Source: a virus (lineage: Duplodnaviria > Heunggongvirae > Uroviricota > Caudoviricetes). From it: 51,707 bases of DNA. The stretch lies in IMG/VR virus record IMGVR_UViG_3300032144_000001, positions 73,293-124,999 of that record, one strand, 5' to 3'. Shown piece by piece: positions 3,001 to 26,998 of the stretch (its first letter is position 1; each line of letters starts with the position of its first letter). The translations under genes and the position numbers were made by a program. Below the pieces are notes generated by a model, which saw only the letters and a program-made list of their open reading frames with translations, was not told where the DNA came from and ran no database searches.

Positions 3001-4992
3001 AACCATTCTTTGAACCAGAGACAACCTATCTATATTGACTCTGAGAGATTTAATAAGATTACCCCTGAAGATCTAGATTGGCTCACTGGAGGAACTTTAA
3101 ATAAGAAGGATATAGCTATTAAATTCAAAGATTTCAATAGAATTGAAATTGATGGTAAAATGGTAGCTTCTTTATCAATGGTTAAGAATGCTGCTGGAGA
3201 GAATATATCTGATATCATAGGTCAATTCATTGATGGATATGTAGATATTTCAAAAGGTCCTTGGATTATGGAATTAGGTGCTACTCCAAATGTAGCTTCT
3301 ACATGGTTATTTTTAACTAAAATAGGTGTTCCTATTGAAACAGTGGCTTATTTCATGAATCAGCCTATCATTAGAGACTACCTAACTAAAGTTGAAAATG
3401 CTGGTTATTCATGGTTATTTATTGATGATTTTGTAGATGAAGTTAAAAAATCTTCTAAATATAATGTTGATAAATCTGAAATCAATAAAGTAAAGTTAAT
3501 TCCTTCTAACCTCAAATCAACTGTAGGTAAGGATAAATTTACTCCTAAAGAAAAAGCAGAACAACAATTTATACTGACAGAATTTCTGAAATATGCCAAA
3601 ATGGCAAATCATATGTTCCTTGTAACACAAGGTTCTAATTGGGATACTGCTACATTTAATGATCCTTTCTTAGTATTTAAGAAACTTAAACAGCTTGAAA
3701 AAGCTCAATCTAGTATTATTTCTTCTGTAACTGATCTAATAAATAATTCATTTATTAGAAAACTTATGGATAAAGTATATGATACTAGAGATGCTTTATC
3801 TACTGTTCTAATATCTGATCTTCCAAATACAAGAGAGGTGCTTGAGAAAGTTCTTACTCCTTATGTAGATTTAACAGATAGAGAATTTGTTAAAATAGCT
3901 AGAAAAGCTGTAAATGACCTATTTGATTGGGCTGTTCAAAATGATAGAAAACTTAATACTCAAGTAACTAATATTTTACTTTCTGATGAAAATGCAGCTT
4001 CTGAGATTAATGACTTTGTAGTATCTGTAAGAAGAAATCCTTCTCATCCTTTATTTAATAATCAAGTTGTTAAACTTATAACTCCTCATTTTGACTCTTT
4101 ACCTAATAAGGTAAATAACATTAAGATTAAGAATAAGGACAATAAGGTATATGATCAGAATCAAATGATTTATGCTTTTAATGAACTGAGAGAATACTTA
4201 AAAGGAGAAAATAATCCTTTATACGGATCTTTAGTAAGATTAGCTGTATTACAATCAGGTCTTTCTAACTCACCAATATCATTTACTTCGTTATTACCAT
4301 ATGATGATTTTAAAGAAATTTATAATAAAACCTTGTTAGAATTAGAAAATAGTGCTAACTTGGAAGATTTCTATAAATTGAACGTTTTTGAGAGAAATAA
4401 CTGGAATGATGATGATTTAGTTCCTACCAGAAAAGCTAGATGGAAAAAGAGCAAATCTGGAGAATGGAGTTATAATAACAATATGAAATTTTATGTTAAT
4501 AAAGTAAGTTCCGCAATCAGAGAAAATAAAATTCCTCAACTTGTTAAAATTAATAATAAATCCAGAGAAGCTGAGAATGATGTTATTGTGTATACTTGGG
4601 AGGAGGGAACTAAAGCTCAAAAAGATGCTAAAAAGAAAATAGGTGATTATTCTTATATTAAGAAAGGTTTATTTAAGAAAATGTATAGAGGAGGTCAACC
4701 TTATACGAATTCATATACGATAACAGATAAAGAGACTGGAGAAAATAAGATAATAACTGAGTATATTTATAAAATGATAAATGCTTGGGGAGATTCTCAT
4801 GTTTCTGATGGTGTGTATTACGGAGCAAATGAGTTCTATTCTACACCAAGAGAATCAGTTATTGACAATGGATTCATAAAGGTTGAAAATGAACAATCTG
4901 ATGAATCTATTCTTACATACTTTGATAAACCTGTAAAACAGACTATTTCTGATACAAAAGTTGATAATTCACAAAACCAAATTCCTTGCTAA
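1..4992 (+). CDS. Virion-encoded DNA-dependent RNA polymerase, crAss-like (phi14:2 gp66 type); 5'-truncated by window edge
   Basis: Frame 1 is open from base 1 (STFFNVKGERTQ...) into the 223..4992 ORF, so the true start is upstream. Catalytic loop YRIPTQ...FLP..GDSVVIP...GSDFDIDKL (DFDID at 2410-2424); also DGYVDISKGP. Confidence 0.92.
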   Translation, partial: STFFNVKGERTQTYIGTNPVSDLHDHLSQIDNISQLAGTPYEYLLSDTFSQGSVILGKIFNLETGNRIKGGELLMKPGYADGTVNLENGKKKQSGKLTYKERIIQETNLNLAGYYYNLVPGDSSLEWMVYMGNQITPDSLLSGWKRVNDIFKDYFISELNLSREERSINEKKGRKTTDLRFLKPILGAELHNQIIKEKGTPEEVYTKYQSKIDKAVQSFIEQESNKFRDLLEKYEILTKTPEGNFITENISFNKGESMKEDTLKRQLNTLSANFAINNIELHKLIYSDPYQYSDELKRIKNANSPRQSLIHNSPEFNMSLNEVWNKGYNKEDIGYTDFTRDYFKTITASDVTGTSDLKDYGTFDETDGGGIISLKAHRWLRIKAGEWSSEEEKQYKYDIAYEKRDKNKELSKEEKKLLEQPNPSVKSTYTPLKPIVFGNKANGKPYNDIDLDKFALYPLSYRIMKEINPSSNAIKLYNKMQREDIDYLVFASGRKVGSEGTNSLYNQDGSFNQLPFNYKINIPHNIIAIQSEVPSKDEPLVTRGSQITKLVTLDFMNAGVPIDYKEGFEAWNKLTEDQKQKSSPLYKEIKHNQEVLEQLIEQGYQLLLNKLGIEQTPDGGFQITDFTKAAETLREEIFKREVNDNVVDSLTSFLNGSVILEATPAYQQVRNILYSIADKNVISAKISGGQKVQIPSTLFESVRPAGKNGIFQSDVLDFYQDEDGKRVCEIMVGRWFDSSLSDDKLLNYLNNTKEGQKILSGVAYRIPTQKQNSIDAFKIKQFLPREFGDSVVIPSALVKKVGSDFDIDKLYIYFKNIYQNLKGEPKLVPFVGYGQQAKDKLAKMYEEGAFLNEEQRKIINNWVSARKQEDKDDSANKLAVAIFGEGSYEQEVIDDFLDAKNSKDIQNRIIDRVYKQSLENEYIQSLENLISNPLNFENLIKPNSADQLKGLAKDITKAIGREEFDYSSTENMLSKTFMSSLRQAFVSGKYAIGIAAVNQTNHSLNQRQPIYIDSERFNKITPEDLDWLTGGTLNKKDIAIKFKDFNRIEIDGKMVASLSMVKNAAGENISDIIGQFIDGYVDISKGPWIMELGATPNVASTWLFLTKIGVPIETVAYFMNQPIIRDYLTKVENAGYSWLFIDDFVDEVKKSSKYNVDKSEINKVKLIPSNLKSTVGKDKFTPKEKAEQQFILTEFLKYAKMANHMFLVTQGSNWDTATFNDPFLVFKKLKQLEKAQSSIISSVTDLINNSFIRKLMDKVYDTRDALSTVLISDLPNTREVLEKVLTPYVDLTDREFVKIARKAVNDLFDWAVQNDRKLNTQVTNILLSDENAASEINDFVVSVRRNPSHPLFNNQVVKLITPHFDSLPNKVNNIKIKNKDNKVYDQNQMIYAFNELREYLKGENNPLYGSLVRLAVLQSGLSNSPISFTSLLPYDDFKEIYNKTLLELENSANLEDFYKLNVFERNNWNDDDLVPTRKARWKKSKSGEWSYNNNMKFYVNKVSSAIRENKIPQLVKINNKSREAENDVIVYTWEEGTKAQKDAKKKIGDYSYIKKGLFKKMYRGGQPYTNSYTITDKETGENKIITEYIYKMINAWGDSHVSDGVYYGANEFYSTPRESVIDNGFIKVENEQSDESILTYFDKPVKQTISDTKVDNSQNQIPC

Positions 4993-7900
4993 TGGCTAAC
5001 TGTAAACTAGACTATATTGAAAATCAATCATTTAGTGATACTGAGAAGCAACGTCTTGTAAGTATCCATAAGTCGATTTTTGATAGAGCTAAGGCTTCTA
5101 AAGCTTTTAGAAATTTCAATGATAAATTGTTTACTCTGAAGAACAATTACCCTAGTGCTACTCAATTTGTATATAATACAAATAATGAGTATAATGCACC
5201 TATTACAAGGATAGATACTTCTGCTCCTGGTCAACATTATCTGAACGTTAATGTTTTACCTTTAGCTGAAGAGATACAAGGTGAACTTTTTCAGGTTGAA
5301 AATATACCTGTATCAGTAGCCTCTAAAGAAACTTTAGATAGAGTTAAAGAAGCTCTCGTAAAAATGAAAGTTTCTTTGCAAGATTTATCAGAATACGCTA
5401 AAAAGGATAAACTTGATACTAAAACTATTAATGGTTTAGCTGACCTTTCTAGGGGTATTATAGCTATTGCTGATGGAAAAGAAAGTGTAGCTCTTACTGA
5501 AGAAATGGTTCATATAGCTACTCAGATTATTGAACAAACTAATCCTAAAATGATTACTGAAATGATCTCTAAGATAGATCGTTTCAATATATATAAAAAA
5601 GTTTATCAGGAATATAAGGATATTTACACTTTACCTAATGGTAAACCTGATATTAGGAAGATTAAAAAAGAAGCTGTAGATAAACTTATAGCTGAATTAA
5701 TAGTCAATAATGGACAAGAATTTGAGCAATATCCTGAATTAAGAGAAGAAACAAACAGATCGCTAGTTCGTAAATGGTGGACTTCTATACTTGACTTCAT
5801 TAAAGGATTATATAGGGAGTCCAATATCTATATCTTTGATGAAGCTGCTAAGCAAATAATTGAAGGTGAAATAGGTACTGTTGAGGAAATGGTTGGAGAA
5901 GGTGTACTTTTCCAATTATCAGATAAACAGAAGGAAATTCAGGAAAGAATTAAACTTACTTCTGAAAGAGTAGAAAAAGTACAATCTAATGAAAAAGTAG
6001 ATCCTATTCTGCTAGATAGTGAAGAAGCTAATAATTTCTATCGTATTAAGGATGATCAGGGAAATTGGACTAAAATTACCAGAAGGGTAACTGATAGGGT
6101 TAAGAACTGGTATAAAGAAAGATTCCCAGGCAAAGTATTCTCTAAATCGGAGCAAGAATTCAATGAACTTAAAAGACAATATGGAGTTCAAGGTCACCAG
6201 GACTTAGAAGAAATTCATTCCAGGTTCTATAATACTGATGGTACTAAGAGGGAAAACCCCTTAGAGAAGCCTAAAAAGTTCAATTTACCATCTCAGGATA
6301 TGTATGATAAACTTGAGAAATGGTATACTGGATATATTAAATCTCTTCCTAAAGATACTTTAGTATTCTCAGAAGTTATTATTTATGATGAAAAGCAGAA
6401 AGAAGCTGGTACGATAGACTTTCTAGCTGTAGAACCTTCTGGTAAAACTCATATTCTTGACTGGAAGTTTATGAATGTTTCTGCTGATCAAGAAGATGTA
6501 GCTTGGTATAAACAAGGTGCTTATAATCTCCAGATAGGTAGATATAAGGATATTCTTAGGGATAATTATGGAGTTAAGGAATTTGGTCAATTAAGAGCAA
6601 TTCCTATCATAATGAAATTTGAGTTTAAAAAGGATAAATCCCCTCAAATTAAAGGTATTGCTATTGGGAGCCTAGATACCTCAAAAATACAAGATCTCAC
6701 TCTATTACCAGTTGCTGAAGAGTCAGAATCTACAGGATATGAAGCTTTGGACAATATTATAGGTAAACTTAATGCTCATTTAAAACAAGTTGCGAAGGAG
6801 AAAGTTACTTCTGAAGAAGAAAGAGAGTTTAAGTATGAACGAATGAGTATTATTAGTAAAGCCGTAAGGTTAGCACATATAACTCAAAATGTAGTACCTC
6901 TTATTGATGTTATTGAAGTAATGAGAAAAGAAGGAGATCGTATTTTAGGTGAATATACTACTACTTATAAAGATAGACCTGCTTCTTCTGAGGATAATAC
7001 AGATTCAGAATTATCTGATTTCTCTGAGGAAATGAATGACTATATAAGTCTATCTAGAGGATTTGAAGAAATTAGTGATGATCTTGGAGATTTAATATAT
7101 TCAGAAGGTCTTAAAGAAGAAGGATTAACCGAAAAAGAAATTACGCTTAGAAAAGGATTTTTAGATAAATTAAACACGGAATCTACTCAGTTACGAAAAC
7201 TAAGGAAGAAAATACAGGAATCTTCAGAAGCATTTGCAGATAAACATATAGGTGAAAGAAATCTTGTAGTAAGTCTTCTTAAACCAGAAAAGATAGTTAA
7301 AGGTTTGGGATCTACATTTAGAGGAGTTTCAGAATTTGGGTTAAAAGCTGTTGATATTTTGGTAAAACTAGCTAGGTCTGCTCAAAATAAAGCTTCTGAA
7401 TCTGCACTGAAAGAAATTCAAGAACTTATATCTATACGAGAAAAGTTATCAAAAAGAGGCAATATTAAAGAGTTAGCTAAAAGGGTATACGAAAAAGATG
7501 AGAAAGGTAATATAGTAAATAGAATAATTCGTCAATATCAGGTTAAGTTCTTTGAAGAAGTGGATAAGAAAGCCAAAGAAGGTGGAGATTTAAAATGGCT
7601 AAAGGACAATATTAATATAGAAGAGTATAAAAAAGAAGCTCAAGAAAAGATAAATAATAGAATTAAACAAATTAAACAAACTCCATATCCGGGATCTGAT
7701 TCAGAAGTAGCTGACAGAGTAGAGGAAGAGATTCTAAAAACAAAAAGGTTATATGATATTACAAGACCAGATTTTATAGGATGGAATAATTATATAATTA
7801 AGAGACATCCTCTTGAAAAATGGGAATCTGAAGAATACAAATCTATTAAAAATGATTCAGATTTAATGGATTTGTACAAATTTATTGTTAAATATAATAA

Positions 7901-10116: not shown

Positions 10117-10455
10117 ATGAGAGTAGCTGAAATTTGTCCGAATTGTGCAACATATATCAATGCGGCATGTATTATATATAATGGTGATTATCTGAAAGCA
10201 ATAAATGCTTCCCCATTAGATTCATTGGATATTATTCTTGAATCAATTAATGATTCATTTGGAGCTATACCTGGAAGTGGTGTTCCTACAAATATTCCAT
10301 CTTTTTATGGTCAATTTTATATTGATAGTGGAACATCTCTATATATAGGATTATCCGATACAATCCCAAATTGGGGATTTGTTGGTACAATAGTTACTAC
10401 GACTACTACAACTAGTACATCAAGTACTACTACAACAACTACTACAACACCTTAA
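10117..10455 (+). CDS. Small structural protein: Cys-containing N-terminal module plus C-terminal poly-Thr/Ser tail
   Basis: 112 aa; N-terminus aligns without gaps with the next gene; ends in 18 consecutive T/S then P; stop overlaps next start (TAATG). Confidence 0.8.
   Translation: MRVAEICPNCATYINAACIIYNGDYLKAINASPLDSLDIILESINDSFGAIPGSGVPTNIPSFYGQFYIDSGTSLYIGLSDTIPNWGFVGTIVTTTTTTSTSSTTTTTTTTP
10396..10449 (+). repeat. Low-complexity Thr/Ser codon run (TTTTTTSTSSTTTTTTTT)
   Basis: 18 codons using mixed ACT/ACA/ACG/AGT/TCA. Confidence 0.9.
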
Positions 10456-14302: not shown

Positions 14303-15862
14303 ATGGGTTATATAAATAGACAAATAGGATGGTCACCAGAAGAAATTGAATATCAAAAATTTCTAAAAAACTTGAAAAAGAGAAATCAAGGATTTGGAAA
14401 AACAATTATTCCTGATCCGAGTACTCCATCAGTGTTTGATGATATTTTAGGACATTGGGATGCAGATACCTTTACAGGAACTTCTGGATCGTATGTATTA
14501 ACTGATAAATCAGGTAATGGTCATCCTATGACACAAGCTGCGGGTACTATAACTCCTGGAACATCGACTAATGGAAAACCTAGAATGGTTGGAAACGCTA
14601 CTGCAAGATTTACTTGTCCTTTAACGATGAAATCATGGCCTTTAACAGTAGTTACAGTTTTTAAAAGGACTGCCGCAGCTACTTGTGGATTTTTTGGTCA
14701 CACTGGTACAACTCCATATAATTCAATGTGGGTTGGTTATGAATCATCCAATAGTTTCAGGATATATAATACAAATAGTACAGCTAATACAACAGCAGAA
14801 GCTGGAACTACTTCTTGTTATATTGCAAGAATAGGATATGGATCTAGAATGTCAATCCTTAATGGTATCGTTTTAAATGATTGTCAATTGGGTAGTATTG
14901 TACAGACTGGATTAGTAACTACAACCATAGGTACAGAGTATCGTGGACTTAATGGTGAGTGGCAAAGAACATATGTTTGGGATAGAGAATTAAGTTTGAT
15001 TGAAATGGACGAAGTTCATACTAAGATTAATGAAGATTTTGGAACAGCTATTCCTTTATTTTCTTCATATCCTACATCAAATGTAGTTCTGATCTTTGGT
15101 GACAGTATGATAGGCGGAAGATCTGCCAGAGGAGCAAGTGATGTTAACGTACCTGTTGAATATAGAGGTGCTCAAACTAATGTGGATATTTGGTACGGAA
15201 CCCCTGCCAATAATTTTGGTACTGCATGGAATGACTTTAATTTAACAAATAACAATAATCAACTTAATGACCAGTTTGCAGGAACTAGTACTTATTTTGG
15301 TCCTAATGTATCTTTAGGTAAAGAATATGTTGATAGAACGTCTAATTCTATCAATATCATGCAATCTTCGACAGGTAGCGCTGGTCTTAGTAAAATAGGA
15401 AGTAATGCTTTCTTTGACCCTTTTGATAATTCTTTAACTCAATTAAATCCAGCAAGAGGTTATGGATCTTTTATGAAGAATTATTGGAAATCTTTTTCAG
15501 CTTTACAAGCTAGTGGAACAATACCATCTATTAAAGGAATTATAATAGGTTTAGGTACAAATGATGCTGTGAATCAAACGGCAGCAGATAATTTTGCTAT
15601 ACAGGGTAATTTATTAATACCCCAACTAAGAAGAGAGTTAGGCGTAAGTGCTGATGACTCAAAAATAATTTGGTTGAGAATGCATATAGGAACTACAGGA
15701 GGTACTTACGAAACAATTATAAGAACTAAAACTGCTGAAATAGTAGCAGCCAATCCAAATTGTGTGATGGTAAGTGACGATGCTTACAGCTTTGTAGATG
15801 GAGTACATTTAAATGCAGCGGGAAATATTGGTATTGGTTCAGATTTATCTACTTATCTATAA
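14303..15862 (+). CDS. Virion-associated lectin-like domain plus SGNH hydrolase (carbohydrate O-acetylesterase-like)
   Basis: SGNH blocks LIFGDS, GLGTNDA and DGVH; N-terminal beta-rich GHWDAD domain resembles LamG/ConA; starts with an IGWS helical peptide. Confidence 0.75.
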   Translation: MGYINRQIGWSPEEIEYQKFLKNLKKRNQGFGKTIIPDPSTPSVFDDILGHWDADTFTGTSGSYVLTDKSGNGHPMTQAAGTITPGTSTNGKPRMVGNATARFTCPLTMKSWPLTVVTVFKRTAAATCGFFGHTGTTPYNSMWVGYESSNSFRIYNTNSTANTTAEAGTTSCYIARIGYGSRMSILNGIVLNDCQLGSIVQTGLVTTTIGTEYRGLNGEWQRTYVWDRELSLIEMDEVHTKINEDFGTAIPLFSSYPTSNVVLIFGDSMIGGRSARGASDVNVPVEYRGAQTNVDIWYGTPANNFGTAWNDFNLTNNNNQLNDQFAGTSTYFGPNVSLGKEYVDRTSNSINIMQSSTGSAGLSKIGSNAFFDPFDNSLTQLNPARGYGSFMKNYWKSFSALQASGTIPSIKGIIIGLGTNDAVNQTAADNFAIQGNLLIPQLRRELGVSADDSKIIWLRMHIGTTGGTYETIIRTKTAEIVAANPNCVMVSDDAYSFVDGVHLNAAGNIGIGSDLSTYL

Positions 15863-21871: not shown

Positions 21872-21988
21872 ATGGCACAGGAAATAGGCTGGTCAATACA
21901 AGATAAACTCTTGTATCAAATTAAACAGGAGATAAAGAAAAATAGACAATCTGCTGTCACAGTAAATACTACAACAACTACACCGTAA
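21872..21988 (+). CDS. 38-aa peptide MAQEIGWSIQDKLLYQIKQEIKKNRQSAVTVNTTTTTP (not in ORF track)
   Basis: Hand-translated; fills the 21871-21999 gap; IGWS motif shared with the 14303 protein; poly-Thr-Pro end like the 10117 protein. Confidence 0.8.
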   Translation: MAQEIGWSIQDKLLYQIKQEIKKNRQSAVTVNTTTTTP

Positions 21989-21999
21989 GCTAATAATTA

Positions 22000-23016
22000 A
22001 TGAAAAAACCAATATTAATTACTTGCCAACCGGATGATCAGTATTTTCTATGGCAGAATCATGTATATATAGAATCTTGTCTAGATGTTGGTTTTGAAGA
22101 AGATAAAATTCATATACTTCTCTATAAACCTATAGACAGACCTTTTAATAAGAATTGGACAAAATTAAAAGAATTATATCCTAAATTAAATCTTCATTTA
22201 TATGAAGATAAAGGAGTTGGAGATTATCTTGGAATATACATTCCTATATTAAGACCTCATATTCTCTGGCAGCATTTTGAAAAGTTCCCAGAGCTTGAAA
22301 AAGAAACAATTATATACACAGATTGTGATATAGTATGGACTAAAACTCCAGATATAGCACATCTTTTGGAGGACTCTGCTCATTATATGAGTAATGCTGC
22401 TTCTTATATGAATTATTCTTATTTTGAAAGAAAGAATACTGAGGTATTAGAGTATAAAAAAGAAGACGTAAAAACAAGAGATTTTCTAGCAGAAATATGT
22501 TCTATTGTAGGATTAGACAAGAAAATTGTTGTAGAAAATGATAACAATATCGGAGGAGTTCAATATGTCCTTAAAAATGTAACTGCTAGTTTCTGGAAGA
22601 AAGTTGAAAAAGATGTTCTTCTCATAAGACAACATTTATTAAACATTAATAAGGAGTTTTACGAGAGCGAAAATAAGGGTATTCAAAGTTGGTGTGCTGA
22701 TCTTTGGGCTGTAATATTCAATCTCTGGGCAAAAGGAGATACAGTAAAGATAGTTCCAGAGCTAAACTTTACATGGAGTTCTGATCCAATTAGTAAAATT
22801 AAGGAAACCTCAATTCTTCATAATGCAGGATTAACATCTCCATTTCACAATGGAATACCTGTGATGTATAAGGCTAAGTATATTAATGGATTAAATCCAT
22901 TTAAAGATGTTCATCTATATGAAGTATATAGTGATCCTGAAAGCAAAACATTAGCAAACTATTACTATCTTCAACGTATGTTTGATGTATATAATAAATA
23001 TAGGTTAGAATATTAA
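22000..23016 (+). CDS. GT-A fold glycosyltransferase resembling plant HPAT/SERGT1 peptidyl O-glycosyltransferases
   Basis: DQYFLWQ, YIPILRPHILWQHF, IIYTDCD (DxD) and SWCADLWAV occur in the order of the HPAT/SERGT1 blocks Y..WQ, NRP..F.QW, MAEPD and W..EMY. Confidence 0.7.
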   Translation: MKKPILITCQPDDQYFLWQNHVYIESCLDVGFEEDKIHILLYKPIDRPFNKNWTKLKELYPKLNLHLYEDKGVGDYLGIYIPILRPHILWQHFEKFPELEKETIIYTDCDIVWTKTPDIAHLLEDSAHYMSNAASYMNYSYFERKNTEVLEYKKEDVKTRDFLAEICSIVGLDKKIVVENDNNIGGVQYVLKNVTASFWKKVEKDVLLIRQHLLNINKEFYESENKGIQSWCADLWAVIFNLWAKGDTVKIVPELNFTWSSDPISKIKETSILHNAGLTSPFHNGIPVMYKAKYINGLNPFKDVHLYEVYSDPESKTLANYYYLQRMFDVYNKYRLEY

Positions 23017-23037: not shown

Positions 23038-23223
23038 ATGGCAACAAATAGAAAAGATTTACGTGCTTGGGTACGCTATGACGGAAGTGGTCGTGTAGTA
23101 GCAGGATCATTAATCCTTCGTAAAGATAAACCTAAAGTAGGTCAATGGACTGAAGTTAGATCATATGAGTGTTGTGATCCTCAGTTTCCGACTACAACTA
23201 GTACAACAACAGAAGAAGCTTAA
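23038..23223 (+). CDS. 61-aa protein ending in CCDPQFPTTTSTTTEEA
   Basis: Directly after the GT; basic beta-type body with a Thr/Ser tail; TAATG coupling to the next gene. Confidence 0.75.
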   Translation: MATNRKDLRAWVRYDGSGRVVAGSLILRKDKPKVGQWTEVRSYECCDPQFPTTTSTTTEEA

Positions 23224-23810
23224 TGAAGGTTAGAGGTCCAGTTGATGATTCTGTAAAAAGAGTTTGTAAGGTTTGTAATGTAGAAAAACAATTAAACACT
23301 GAATTCTCATACAGATCTGGATTCGATCTCTATAATCATTATTGTAAAGATTGTGATAATAGAAGACGAAGATTAATTCGTGCTGGACTTCCACTTCCAG
23401 AAGAATATCTAAATCTTACTAGGAGAAGTAAGAAGAAGATAGTCTTTGAAAACAAACCTTATCGAAAGACTCATTTTTACAATCGAAAAAGATTAGATTT
23501 TAAAGCGCACGATAAGAAAAAAGGATGGGAATGTGACTTAACTCCAACATTCATTGAAAGCTGCTACAACTCCAATTGTACTTATTGTGGTTATCCATCT
23601 TGTACAATAGATAGAGTAGACAATGAAATTGGTCATATCATGACTAATTGTGTACCAGCCTGTTATGAGTGTAATACTGCTAGGAATAGACTATTTTCTT
23701 TTGAAGAGATGAAAATATTAGGAAAAGTTATAAAAGAAATTAAAGATAATCGAATAGATTATAATCCTAATACAATATTTCCAAGAACTGTATATGAAAA
23801 TCAACTATAA
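23223..23810 (+). CDS. HNH-family (His-Me finger) endonuclease with Zn fingers
   Basis: CKVC...CKDC N-terminal; CTYCG...IDRVDNEIGH..TNCVPACYECN. Confidence 0.8.
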   Translation: MKVRGPVDDSVKRVCKVCNVEKQLNTEFSYRSGFDLYNHYCKDCDNRRRRLIRAGLPLPEEYLNLTRRSKKKIVFENKPYRKTHFYNRKRLDFKAHDKKKGWECDLTPTFIESCYNSNCTYCGYPSCTIDRVDNEIGHIMTNCVPACYECNTARNRLFSFEEMKILGKVIKEIKDNRIDYNPNTIFPRTVYENQL

Positions 23811-24106: not shown

Positions 24107-24358
24107 ATGGAAATTGTAAAAGAAAATAAACCAGTTTATTCCCCTGAAAAGAAATATAGTTGGAAGGGAAATGATGAGTTTGTAATTAACGGAGCAGAAC
24201 TTAATTTTATTCTGAACTCTGTCAGGAAGATACTTCTTTCAGATCAAGCTCAAAATATCTTCATGTTAGAAAAAGCTAATTCAATGTTAGAAGGTATAAT
24301 GTCTAAAGCAGTAGCAGATGGAAAGATTAAAGAAGTTGAAGAAACAAAAGCCCCTTAG
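24107..24358 (+). CDS. Hypothetical protein, last gene of the + arm
   Basis: 83-aa ORF ending inside the terminator hairpin. Confidence 0.65.
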   Translation: MEIVKENKPVYSPEKKYSWKGNDEFVINGAELNFILNSVRKILLSDQAQNIFMLEKANSMLEGIMSKAVADGKIKEVEETKAP

Positions 24359-24373
24359 TTAGGGGCTTTTTTT
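24346..24373. terminator. Bidirectional intrinsic terminator at the convergence of the two arms
   Basis: AAAAGCCCCT-TAGTT-AGGGGCTTTT followed by further T; A/T tails on both sides. Confidence 0.9.
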
Positions 24374-24927
24374 ATTACTAATAATTTTCTATCTTTCTCT
24401 AGTGATACTTTAGATATATCTTTTTGATGATGAAATAACTCTCTTATTGTATCATAAACTTCTCTTCCTTTTGCTTGTTTACAATGTAAATCTTCTATAA
24501 TGTAATATCCACCTTTTTTAACTCTTGGATATAACATTGTAAAACTAGTTAAAATATCATTTATTTTATGACTACCATCATCTATAATAATGTCATATTC
24601 ATGTGGATGAGTAATTATTAATGATGATAAGTTATTTTGATCTCCTTGATCTCCTATAAAAATAGATACATTCTCCTCTTCAAGCTTTCTAGCATCTGGA
24701 TTTATATCCATTCCTACAAACTTAAGATCAGAAAAGAAAGACTGCCACATTTTTATTGATGTACCTGGAAATCTTGGGTCCATTACACCTATTTCTAGCA
24801 TTCTAATAGGATTATCTTGCCAGAGATAGAATAAAGAAGAATATACCTCTGTATATCCATGAGCTTCAAAGTGCTCATTTCCTCTATCATTTCCTAGTTT
24901 ATTAGCTATTTCAGTAAGTGTATCCAT
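24355..24927 (-). CDS. Class I SAM-dependent methyltransferase (sugar O-methyltransferase-like)
   Basis: HGYTEVY, MLEIGV, GMDI, IFIGDQ, DIIIDDGSH, GGYYIIEDL. Confidence 0.85.
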   Translation of the reverse strand: MDTLTEIANKLGNDRGNEHFEAHGYTEVYSSLFYLWQDNPIRMLEIGVMDPRFPGTSIKMWQSFFSDLKFVGMDINPDARKLEEENVSIFIGDQGDQNNLSSLIITHPHEYDIIIDDGSHKINDILTSFTMLYPRVKKGGYYIIEDLHCKQAKGREVYDTIRELFHHQKDISKVSLEKDRKLLVIKKAPN

Positions 24928-24928
24928 A

Positions 24929-25513
24929 TTAGTTGTGTACGTATAGAACTTTATTTATCTTAAATATATGATAATCTCTGAACTTTTTCTTAAAATCTTC
25001 AACAAATTCACCATCTGCTGCGTATCCTGAACCTAGTTTTATTTGTTTGGCTAAATCAGTTTTAACCGCAAAAGCACCAATATCTATCTGTCCATTAGCA
25101 GGAATACATTTAAAATAAGAATAATCAAAACTATTATGCACCATATCCCAATAGACCATACCTGGAGAACCTTTTAACTCTTTTTTAAGTTCTGAAACAA
25201 AAGTAGGGACATAATAATTATCATCTCCTGTCATAATAATATAATCAGCTTTACTATTTTGTTTACCTAATTCCCTAGGAGTATGTCCAAAATCCTTACT
25301 TCTTTGGTTAGTAATCATAAAACTGATTCGTTCATCCTCAAAGCTGGATATTAATTTAGAGGTTTTCTGAACCACATCAGAATAAGCATAATCATCTATT
25401 ACTACTACAGCAGTCCATTCTTTATCAGTTTGAGCTACTAAACAAGATAAGATAACTTTAAGTTCATTATCTCTATTCCAGGTAGGGATTATAAATTCAA
25501 CAGTTTTACTCAT
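24929..25513 (-). CDS. Glycosyltransferase family 2
   Basis: IIPTWNR, VVIDD, DFGHTPRELG, YIIMTGDDNYY. Confidence 0.85.
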   Translation of the reverse strand: MSKTVEFIIPTWNRDNELKVILSCLVAQTDKEWTAVVVIDDYAYSDVVQKTSKLISSFEDERISFMITNQRSKDFGHTPRELGKQNSKADYIIMTGDDNYYVPTFVSELKKELKGSPGMVYWDMVHNSFDYSYFKCIPANGQIDIGAFAVKTDLAKQIKLGSGYAADGEFVEDFKKKFRDYHIFKINKVLYVHN

Positions 25514-26249
25514 TTTTTAGTTTTAAAAATCTAGAATTCTTATTTTTATTTAATATTGATCTTAGATTAGAGTATCCTATTCCTATAGAAGAAGATAATT
25601 CCAGAATTGAATCATAAAATATGCCTGTTTCTAAATCAAGAACTTTAGTGCAAATTCTCTCTAACATTTTTGGACCATGTTTCTTCCCATAGAAGCCATT
25701 ATTTTCACCTTTCTGATTATTATTTTGTCTTATTTTTTGTTTACTTTCTTCAGAATGAGTTTTACCATAAAATGGATTGTTTTTACCAGAAGTAGCTCTA
25801 CTTATCTTTAATTTTACTTCATTAGAATGTTTATATTCGTTTTTTATTCTAGTAGATATGAATTTATCTACGACTTCCTTAGGTCTTTTTCTACCCTTTA
25901 AAATATTTCTTATTTTATCTCTATGTTCTTTGGTTCTTTCATATACTACTCCATTACCTCCTTCTCCACCATCTGTCATATTAGCTAATATTCCTGTATT
26001 TATATTTATTCTTCCATAAAGCTTAATAAATTCTTTCTCTTTTTCATTAACTTCATCAAAACTGATATTATCAAATAAAATTTCTACTTCATATTCAGTT
26101 TTATTTACTATCTTTTTCCAAATATTGTTTCTATCACATTTTTCATGTGCTCTATTATAATCATCAAAAGAAGTAGTACCTCCAATTCCTATATAAAAAG
26201 GTTCATTTTTGTCTAGTCTTATATGGCGATATAAATAACAAGTGTTCAT
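25506..26249 (-). CDS. GIY-YIG homing endonuclease with NUMOD3 repeats
   Basis: YLYRH...FYIGIG, NMTDGGEG, HSEESKQKI and NPFYGKTH repeats. Confidence 0.9.
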   Translation of the reverse strand: MNTCYLYRHIRLDKNEPFYIGIGGTTSFDDYNRAHEKCDRNNIWKKIVNKTEYEVEILFDNISFDEVNEKEKEFIKLYGRININTGILANMTDGGEGGNGVVYERTKEHRDKIRNILKGRKRPKEVVDKFISTRIKNEYKHSNEVKLKISRATSGKNNPFYGKTHSEESKQKIRQNNNQKGENNGFYGKKHGPKMLERICTKVLDLETGIFYDSILELSSSIGIGYSNLRSILNKNKNSRFLKLKNE

Positions 26250-26998
26250 TTTTTCCTATATTGATTTAGGAGTTTTACATAATCTCTATTCCATTTTGGT
26301 TTCAAGTAAATTCTACCTGTTGGTACTTTTCCCTGTAATCTCATGTTTTCTAAATAATTAAAATTTCTTTCAATTATATTTAATCTTCCAGGATGGTCAG
26401 TTCCTTCACCGCTCTGATGAAAATTACCTAAACCCTCTTTACTTTCAGGAGTTGCCCATCTGTAGAACCAACTAGGATTCTCAGGTTCAGCATGAACTAC
26501 CTTTTTAGGATCTAAAGCTCTAATAGTATCCGTTAAAGTAGTATCTCCTCCAGCATTCATAATTGGACTTTTACCTATATCCAACCAAGCTTTCTTACTA
26601 TAGACTATTCCACTATTACCTATCCATCCTACATCTGTAATATTAGGTTCATTATAAAATACTCCTTTTTTCCAGTGCAGTAGGTTAGTATCCTCTTTAA
26701 ACCATTCCTTAATATTAGTTAAATGCCAAGGCATGGCAATATCATCATCATCCCATACAGCAAAGATATCACCAGAGCACTGCTCTAGTGCAAAGTTCTC
26801 CTTATCCCCTATAGTAGGGAAAATCTCCTTGGAATTGAATATTTTTACATTAGGATGGTCATAAATAAGAGTTTGATGAGGATAGTCGTTAACTATAATA
26901 AGTTCTGACTCTTCATGCCCTTCTGCCTGTAAAAAAGAATAGAGTGCTTCTTCTAACAGATGCACTCTACCCATTGTAATCATTTTACAACTAATCAT
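26246..26998 (-). CDS. Glycosyltransferase family 2-like
   Basis: CKMITMGR..LLEEALYSF, LIIVND, IGDKENFALEQCSGDIFAVWDDDD. Confidence 0.85.
   Translation of the reverse strand: MISCKMITMGRVHLLEEALYSFLQAEGHEESELIIVNDYPHQTLIYDHPNVKIFNSKEIFPTIGDKENFALEQCSGDIFAVWDDDDIAMPWHLTNIKEWFKEDTNLLHWKKGVFYNEPNITDVGWIGNSGIVYSKKAWLDIGKSPIMNAGGDTTLTDTIRALDPKKVVHAEPENPSWFYRWATPESKEGLGNFHQSGEGTDHPGRLNIIERNFNYLENMRLQGKVPTGRIYLKPKWNRDYVKLLNQYRKK

Follow-up and report, generated by a model that had tools for sequence, protein, structure and literature searches.

The gene at positions 22000 to 23016 (+ strand) of a 51,707-nucleotide stretch of tailed-phage DNA (positions 73,293 to 124,999 of the IMG/VR record IMGVR_UViG_3300032144_000001, hereafter the window) encodes a soluble GT-A glycosyltransferase (GT), here called P0001, and we consider it probable that this enzyme is a cytoplasmic priming O-glycosyltransferase for poly-threonine (poly-Thr) tags on virion proteins. 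In the mechanism that we propose, P0001 would use a host nucleotide-sugar as donor and transfer the first sugar onto Thr hydroxyls of the poly-Thr tags, which form C-terminal tails or inter-domain linkers of particle proteins and would be modified before or during assembly. The likely acceptors in this phage, which is a novel lineage from a soil metagenome, would be two tiny proteins encoded on either side of the GT gene, a 112-amino acid fibre-module protein (gene at 10117), a 390-amino acid head-module protein and a 1610-amino acid virion protein. Two GT2-family enzymes and a methyltransferase, encoded across a transcription terminator, may extend and cap the glycan, and the phage might benefit through shielding, stability or adhesion.

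The open reading frame (ORF) of P0001 is uninterrupted, starts with ATG and encodes 338 amino acids. The original prediction, made from the letters of the DNA alone, had pointed to four sequence blocks, and all of them are found in the protein, namely T8–Q19 (T..PDDQYFLWQ), Y80–F93 (Y.PILRPHILWQHF), I104–D110 (IIYTDCD) and S230–V238 (SWCADLWAV). These blocks are the conserved core of the family in an alignment of 82 relatives (29–66% identity), in which Y80, D108, D110, Y136, Q229, F257, H274 and K291 never vary, while R85, Y106 and D234 show at least 90% conservation. The family numbers 715 cluster representatives at E ≤ 1e-3, of which 249 reach E ≤ 1e-30 (clusters at 50% identity, in a search of 1.84 billion representatives), and such conservation is far beyond chance. 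The prediction had also claimed that the protein has neither a signal peptide nor a transmembrane anchor, which holds, as the N-terminus is devoid of a hydrophobic segment; in the AlphaFold2 model built from the 82-sequence alignment (mean predicted local distance difference test score, pLDDT, 97.1; predicted template-modelling score 0.93), residues 5–11 form the first beta strand of the fold. P0001 is soluble, and therefore cytoplasmic.

By profile comparison, P0001 falls into PHROG 4417 (phrog_4417, function unknown; E 4.2e-46, residues 6–304 against positions 3–271 of the 293-position profile). It has no Pfam match at E ≤ 10 and no NCBIfam match at E ≤ 0.01, and sequence searches of the PDB, both with P0001 itself and with the family profile, gave chance matches only. 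Close relatives (56–66% identity) are found on uncultured-phage contigs of up to 125 kb. Among deposited phage genomes, 77 of 50,697 (0.15%) encode a homologue, all annotated as hypothetical, the best being that of Chryseobacterium phage MA9V-3 (32% identity), while the hosts of other carriers belong to Lactobacillus, Enterococcus, Staphylococcus/Mammaliicoccus, Lactococcus, Clostridium and Arcanobacterium. Longer relatives carry a second, fused domain, either Methyltransf_24 at the N-terminus or GT2-like/Glyco_transf_7C at the C-terminus. Our literature searches returned no paper on PHROG 4417 enzymes or on poly-Thr tags in phages.

The predicted assignment to GT-A glycosyltransferases with a DxD motif is supported by the model, by the invariant D108 and D110, and by matches to solved structures. 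The model contains a single Rossmann-like alpha/beta/alpha nucleotide-binding domain that matches 103 solved chains at Z ≥ 8, the top ones nearly all GT-A, and the DCD motif follows strand 103–106; in sequence, D108, D110 and the likewise invariant H274 give the DxD plus downstream His arrangement. Among solved structures, retaining GT-A enzymes of GT8/GT24 type match best, at 7–11% identity, with VIA-align Z-scores of 14.7 for LgtC (1g9r), 14.5 for the catalytic domain of UGGT (6fsn), 14.4 for glycogenin (3u2t), 14.3 for Skp1 Gat1 (6mw8) and 13.9 for GlyE (5gvv), these five aligning over 211–245 residues; WbbM also scored 13.9, and domain 1 of PBCV-1 A064R (2p6w) scored 11.0. Foldseek placed P0001 against GT8/GT24 chains at E-values of about 2e-6. 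PF01501 (Glyco_transf_8, CAZy GT8) did not match P0001, and the resemblance, with Z of about 14, is only at the level of the fold.

The original prediction had described the fold as plant/algal-type, akin to HPAT and SERGT1, and for HPAT this part stood among predicted structures but not among solved ones. In the ESM Atlas, once the family's own clusters are set aside, the closest annotated neighbours are two Chlorophyta HPAT clusters, in which 99–100% of members carry PF23452, with template-modelling (TM) scores by query of 0.71 over 299 and 0.69 over 293 residues between models that are predicted on both sides; GT8 clusters reached 0.56–0.58. A phage cluster carrying PF11397 (Skp1-type GlcNAc transferase) and O-FucT domains also scored 0.71, and PF23452 was present on 10–16% of the members of sister phage clusters. 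Among solved structures, however, GT8/GT24 enzymes lead, and the hidden Markov model of the HPAT family does not admit P0001, which showed no match to PF23452 at E ≤ 10 and is thus no HPAT member by the Pfam criterion (gathering cut-off 23.9 bits). PF23452 is matched by more of the 82 family members than any other Pfam family, yet only by three of them, at a best E-value of 0.012, below threshold; among 10 relatives from phages of Gram-positive bacteria it found no match at E ≤ 1, and it matched none of the proteins of the whole phage genome in a search that is weak, as control genomes gave no match either. The kinship to HPAT is therefore at the fold level only. A profile search among proteins of 668–2000 amino acids, with E-values relative to 5.8 billion sequences, found only bacterial and phage fused forms. 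Taken together, the model indicates that P0001 is a metal-dependent GT-A glycosyltransferase of GT8/HPAT-like fold, and, given this fold, a retaining mechanism is probable.

The idea that the acceptor is a peptide, already contained in the original prediction, is strongly backed by a conserved pairing of the GT gene with genes that encode poly-Thr runs. The two adjoin in 25 loci from 11 or so lineages, and the tagged proteins include major capsid and tail-tube proteins. A poly-Thr gene lies next to the GT gene in all 12 IMG/VR relatives (35–59% identity) and in Chryseobacterium phage MA9V-3, and in phages of Gram-positive hosts the GT gene forms part of the head or tail operon, where it shares a structural gene block with the poly-Thr-tailed gene and usually comes directly after it. 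There, a poly-Thr tail is carried by the major tail protein of phiFL1A, phiCTP1 (tail tube), TPWB06, F1, iLp84, bIL285 and VPE25, by the major capsid protein and gp8 of iLp84, and by a capsid-like protein of phiFL1A. Phage 1706 has such tails on its capsid/protease and on its major structural protein, and Semele, SAC12B and LP65 have them on small proteins. In two of these phages, VPE25 and bIL285, the GT gene comes first and the tailed major tail gene follows about 1.3–1.8 kb downstream. Because of this genomic pairing, Thr is the likely acceptor, rather than hydroxyproline (Hyp) as for HPAT or Ser as for SERGT1.

The pairing also holds when the search is reversed. A family member was found (E ≤ 1.8e-55) in 9 of 118 viral loci that were chosen solely by the pattern (ACN)9, against none of 118 control loci chosen by (GAN)9 (both sets of about 1.0 Mb and a guanine-plus-cytosine, GC, content of 0.41; Fisher one-sided p = 0.0017), and in all nine positive loci the enzyme is encoded by the very next gene after the poly-Thr ORF, in the same orientation. 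Enzyme and tag are also absent together: the major tail protein of bIL285 has 194 homologues below 60% identity, the genera listed for these (Streptococcus, Ruminococcus, Geobacillus, Bacillus and others) do not occur among the GT matches, and the four homologues that were sampled all stop at the same point, without the Thr tail.

Two variations in the build of the tagged genes may be recorded. In seven IMG/VR loci (L104, L114, L124, L125, L033, L148 and L059) the gene upstream of the enzyme encodes a protein of 558–2069 amino acids with three to seven poly-Thr linkers, mostly about 85–110 residues apart, the last one 67–79 residues from the C-terminus, which resembles a mucin-style array of small domains. 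In Mammaliicoccus phage vB-SscS-F1 (L020 3764-5466), the annotation splits the major tail protein into two parts, 3764–3991 and 5194–5466, with a Cys-rich ORF of 295 amino acids between them, whereas the TPWB06 relative has one intact gene; the F1 tail-tube gene is probably interrupted by an intron or an endonuclease insertion.

In the 125-kb genome of the phage itself, T-rich runs occur in only five plausible genes, all located on the structural arm and including both direct neighbours of the GT gene. The first neighbour (21872..21988, + strand), 11 bases upstream of the GT gene, encodes a 38-amino acid protein ending in NTTTTTP, whose position and build are kept in relatives at 34–47% identity with an invariant T run, and whose N-terminal IGWS module resembles the start of a fibre/esterase protein encoded at 14303 (E 0.017). 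The second (23038..23223, + strand), 21 bases downstream, encodes a basic protein of 61 amino acids with an ECC motif and the ending PTTTSTTTEEA, which is 58–70% identical among relatives; nine relatives (L005-L012 and L268) have between one and three copies of it in tandem after the GT gene, and within L009-L012 and L268, some carry two or three tandem paralogues of this ECC/poly-Thr protein. The third, P0289 (10117..10455, + strand), has 112 amino acids and ends in an 18-residue T/S run followed by P, and its N-terminal Cys module is common to the 537-amino acid fibre encoded by the next gene downstream (E 3e-5), making it a candidate for a virion-displayed acceptor, as the two flanking proteins are candidate acceptors. 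The remaining two genes lie outside the window: one, two genes after that of the major head protein, encodes a protein of 390 amino acids (genome 46627-47799, L021 6627-7799) that ends in 18 T/S residues and then LIP, and the other a virion structural protein of 1610 amino acids (genome 54334-59166, L021 14334-19166) with a 40-residue T/S run at residue 1493. The Thr runs are encoded by mixed ACT, ACA and ACG codons (ACT and ACA in the 38-amino acid protein), and therefore they are not simple DNA repeats, which points to selection on the protein. The N-terminal modules that the 38- and 112-amino acid proteins have in common with fibre proteins suggest, by sequence resemblance, that both tagged proteins dock on the particle.

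The GT gene stands at the end of the structural arm on the + strand, downstream of genes for giant virion proteins, fibres, three esterases and small membrane proteins. This arm converges with the arm on the − strand at a bidirectional terminator-like hairpin (24346..24370) with a 10-bp stem and T runs on both strands; five terminator-like sites were found in comparison with 0.7 expected, and the GC skew changes sign at this hairpin. Given this terminator, the P0001 gene belongs to the late, structural transcription arm. Across the hairpin, on the − strand, lie a class I methyltransferase gene (24355..24927) with weak Methyltransf_24/TylF-like matches, possibly encoding a glycan O-methyltransferase, and two genes for GT2-family glycosyltransferases that possibly extend the glycan. 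The first of these (24929..25513) matches PF00535 at 28.5 bits, above the cut-off, and weakly matches NCBIfam models of exopolysaccharide (EPS)/Pgl-type GT2 enzymes, and the second (26246..26998) matches PF00535 at 29.5 bits, with homologues encoded near the GT gene on the opposite strand in L012 (51.6%) and L007/L008 (26.8%). Methyltransf_24 is the same Pfam family that is fused N-terminally to the GT in the relatives P0153 and P0161; in pairwise BLAST comparisons, the methyltransferase of the window matched the fused domain weakly (E 0.007 over 42 residues), and neither GT2 protein matched the fused relatives significantly. Among these genes, an Endo VII/HNH-like gene in 23223–23810 has a start that overlaps the stop of the gene for the 61-amino acid protein, and a NUMOD3 homing endonuclease gene in 25506–26249 is wedged between the two GT2 genes. 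Both of these homing-type endonuclease genes look like mobile insertions.

Fused homologues of the GT (728–776 amino acids) are also encoded at three chromosomal loci, one of Sphingobacterium paramultivorum and two on metagenomic contigs of Bacteroidota type (L002 8093-12283, L273 6037-10208 and L274 3574-10331). In all three, the fused GT adjoins a Peptidase_C39 ATP-binding cassette (ABC) exporter and a protein of about 300 amino acids with a Gly-Gly-type leader (..ILGG, ..VMGG and ..ILGG, judged by eye). The leader protein of Sphingobacterium paramultivorum is encoded at L002 8093-8986. The 297-amino acid leader protein has no match in NCBIfam, and one putative bacterial substrate ends in GITTPYDG repeats. 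These loci may encode a system of Bacteroidota for a glycosylated exported protein or bacteriocin, and their layout lends independent, though inferential, support to a protein acceptor.

Alternatively, the poly-Thr runs might be mere linkers that travel with the enzyme by shared module ancestry, while the acceptor is another site on the virion, a small molecule or, as in glycogenin, the enzyme itself. Self-glucosylating glycogenin is among the best structural matches, and 109 of the 118 poly-Thr loci contain no family member within the roughly 9 kb examined; poly-Thr runs thus also occur without the enzyme and could be plain flexible linkers. However, the pairing recurs around tagged proteins that are not homologous to each other (capsid, tail tube, Ig-like arrays, tiny peptides and large virion proteins) and spans phages whose hosts belong to at least three phyla, a pattern that common descent of a single module leaves unexplained, and homologous tail-tube proteins lack the tail where the enzyme is absent. 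We therefore regard this alternative as unlikely. Besides the enzyme-free loci, several other observations weigh against P0001 as a priming enzyme for virion tags: the major capsid protein of this phage is without a tag; the two GT2 enzymes and the methyltransferase may be linked to P0001, on the grounds of proximity and of fusions between the same domain classes, with direct similarity that is weak or absent; and the proven mycobacteriophage system has unrelated enzymes and tails that are not poly-Thr, the parallel being functional only.

It is also improbable that the enzyme alters a glycan of the host envelope (lipopolysaccharide, capsule or teichoic acid), thereby blocking superinfection or changing receptors in the manner of prophage GtrB or TarP-type enzymes. 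It is true that LgtC, the best solved match, builds lipo-oligosaccharide, that a neighbouring GT2 weakly matches EPS-, Pgl- and teichuronic-acid-type models, and that several carriers are temperate, but virulent phages carry the gene as well, and it is found within late structural operons, between capsid/tail-tube and chaperone/tape-measure genes, instead of at a moron site near integrase or lysis genes. Moreover, P0001 has no membrane segment, and action on the envelope would leave both the poly-Thr pairing and the co-absence unexplained. That P0001 glycosylates phage DNA bases against restriction, as T4 glucosyltransferases and other enzymes of DNA hypermodification do, is most improbable: phage glycosyltransferases are often DNA-modifying, and a methyltransferase and homing endonucleases are encoded nearby, but the 125-kb genome has no thymidylate-synthase-type hydroxymethylase (the control search was positive in 10 of 14 genomes), the family is present within head/tail operons of small temperate siphoviruses, and the fold of P0001 is GT-A of GT8 type, unlike the GT-B fold of the T4 enzymes.

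A Bacteroidota host is plausible, as Shine-Dalgarno sites are hardly used (a Shine-Dalgarno-like 4-mer precedes only 7 of 107 long ORFs, where 4.3 are expected by chance; upstream GC 0.20), the nearest isolate infects Chryseobacterium, and fused homologues occur in Sphingobacterium. A scan of genome contigs gave just one scaffold, of 5.5 kb, which is assigned to a Tissierellales metagenome-assembled genome, is probably a phage contig and did not settle the host. The major head protein matches only that of Leptolyngbya phage Lbo-JY46 at 25.7% identity, in line with a novel lineage. The original prediction had reasoned that the phage would need an enzyme of its own since the O-glycosylation system of such a host is periplasmic, and, as the host is plausible but unproven, this argument remains an inference.

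Returning to P0001 as a priming enzyme for poly-Thr tags, we put forward, as a possibility that we hold only tentatively, an extension to the whole family: PHROG 4417 might comprise the priming enzymes of a widespread poly-Thr tag-and-transferase system, a cytoplasmic mucin-like O-glycosylation, that acts on capsids, tails and fibres in phages of Bacillota, Bacteroidota and Actinomycetota and on exported Gly-Gly-leader proteins in Bacteroidota cells, and, among prokaryotes and viruses, the family might form the sister group of the extensin-glycosylating GT95/GT96 enzymes of plants and algae. If this were true, virion glycosylation would be a common phage trait beyond mycobacteriophages and would follow a portable rule of one poly-Thr tag plus one soluble enzyme. 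It would also bear on phages of therapy and food, since Enterococcus, Staphylococcus, Lactococcus and Lactobacillus are among the hosts of the carriers. Glycans on mycobacteriophages shield the particles from antibodies. In cryo-electron microscopy and proteomics of virions, such glycans would account for disordered tails and mass anomalies, and a short tag with a cytoplasmic enzyme that is functional in bacteria would be a tool for glyco-engineering. In addition, the fold-level link to HPAT offers a testable starting point for tracing where the plant enzymes that glycosylate extensins came from, and a family of hundreds of clusters that is currently unnamed in any database gains a functional hypothesis.

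Among known enzymes, the plant and green-algal hydroxyproline O-arabinosyltransferases HPAT (GT95, PF23452), which transfer L-arabinofuranose to Hyp, and SGT1/SERGT1 (Ser alpha-galactosyltransferase, GT96) are the peptidyl O-glycosyltransferases that P0001 would resemble in priming glycans on hydroxyl-rich repetitive segments. GT95 is predicted to be GT-A-like (PMC8476585) and is described as related to GT96, and the plant HPAT enzymes are type II membrane proteins of the Golgi (PMC8012813). In contrast to these membrane-anchored enzymes, P0001 is soluble and lacks a type II anchor, and its acceptor would likely be Thr in place of the Hyp or Ser of the plant and algal enzymes.

The GT8/GT24 enzymes have the DxD plus downstream His arrangement in common with P0001, whose model is about 90 residues longer than their catalytic domains. 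Several of them act in comparable settings, as glycogenin and Gat1 modify proteins in the cytoplasm and GlyE decorates a Ser-rich adhesin. A viral counterpart is A064R of the chlorovirus PBCV-1, a three-domain protein, which provides a virus-encoded cytoplasmic set of two GTs and a methyltransferase that decorates the major capsid protein independently of the host machinery. This combination of domains resembles both the trio of GT, GT2 and methyltransferase described here and the fused forms; nevertheless, A064R makes atypical N-linked glycans in a eukaryotic virus that has no poly-Thr tags, and it is only a distant relative in fold. The bacterial fused homologues share their gene layout with glycocin loci (SunS/GccA plus C39 ABC exporters), in which a cytoplasmic enzyme glycosylates the precursor before export. 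The glycocin enzymes, however, are GT2 proteins that act on short peptides, whereas the fused homologues belong to another family and have putative substrates of about 300 amino acids.

The closest parallel in logic is found in mycobacteriophages, whose hosts are Actinomycetota. Experimental proof of virion glycosylation in phages comes from mycobacterial phages only, namely Che8, Corndog and Myrna (Freeman et al. 2023, Cell Host Microbe 31:1216, cited through PMC11600133, PMC12619734 and PMC12363180). In these, phage-encoded GTs, joined in the Corndog type by an O-methyltransferase, add glycans in the cytoplasm to the C-termini of capsid and tail-tube subunits (PMC11600133, PMC12619734, PMC12363180). 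The enzymes of Che8 (gp108-110) are without detectable homology to PHROG 4417 (best family-profile E-value 0.086 at a negative score; BLASTP not significant), its capsid and tail-tube tails are not poly-Thr, and its GT genes are located at the extreme right of the genome and not next to the tagged genes. As is proposed here for P0001, the mycobacteriophages supply their own enzymes and tags on their particle proteins, and the P0001 family is a different enzyme family with a different tag that probably does the same job as the mycobacteriophage system.

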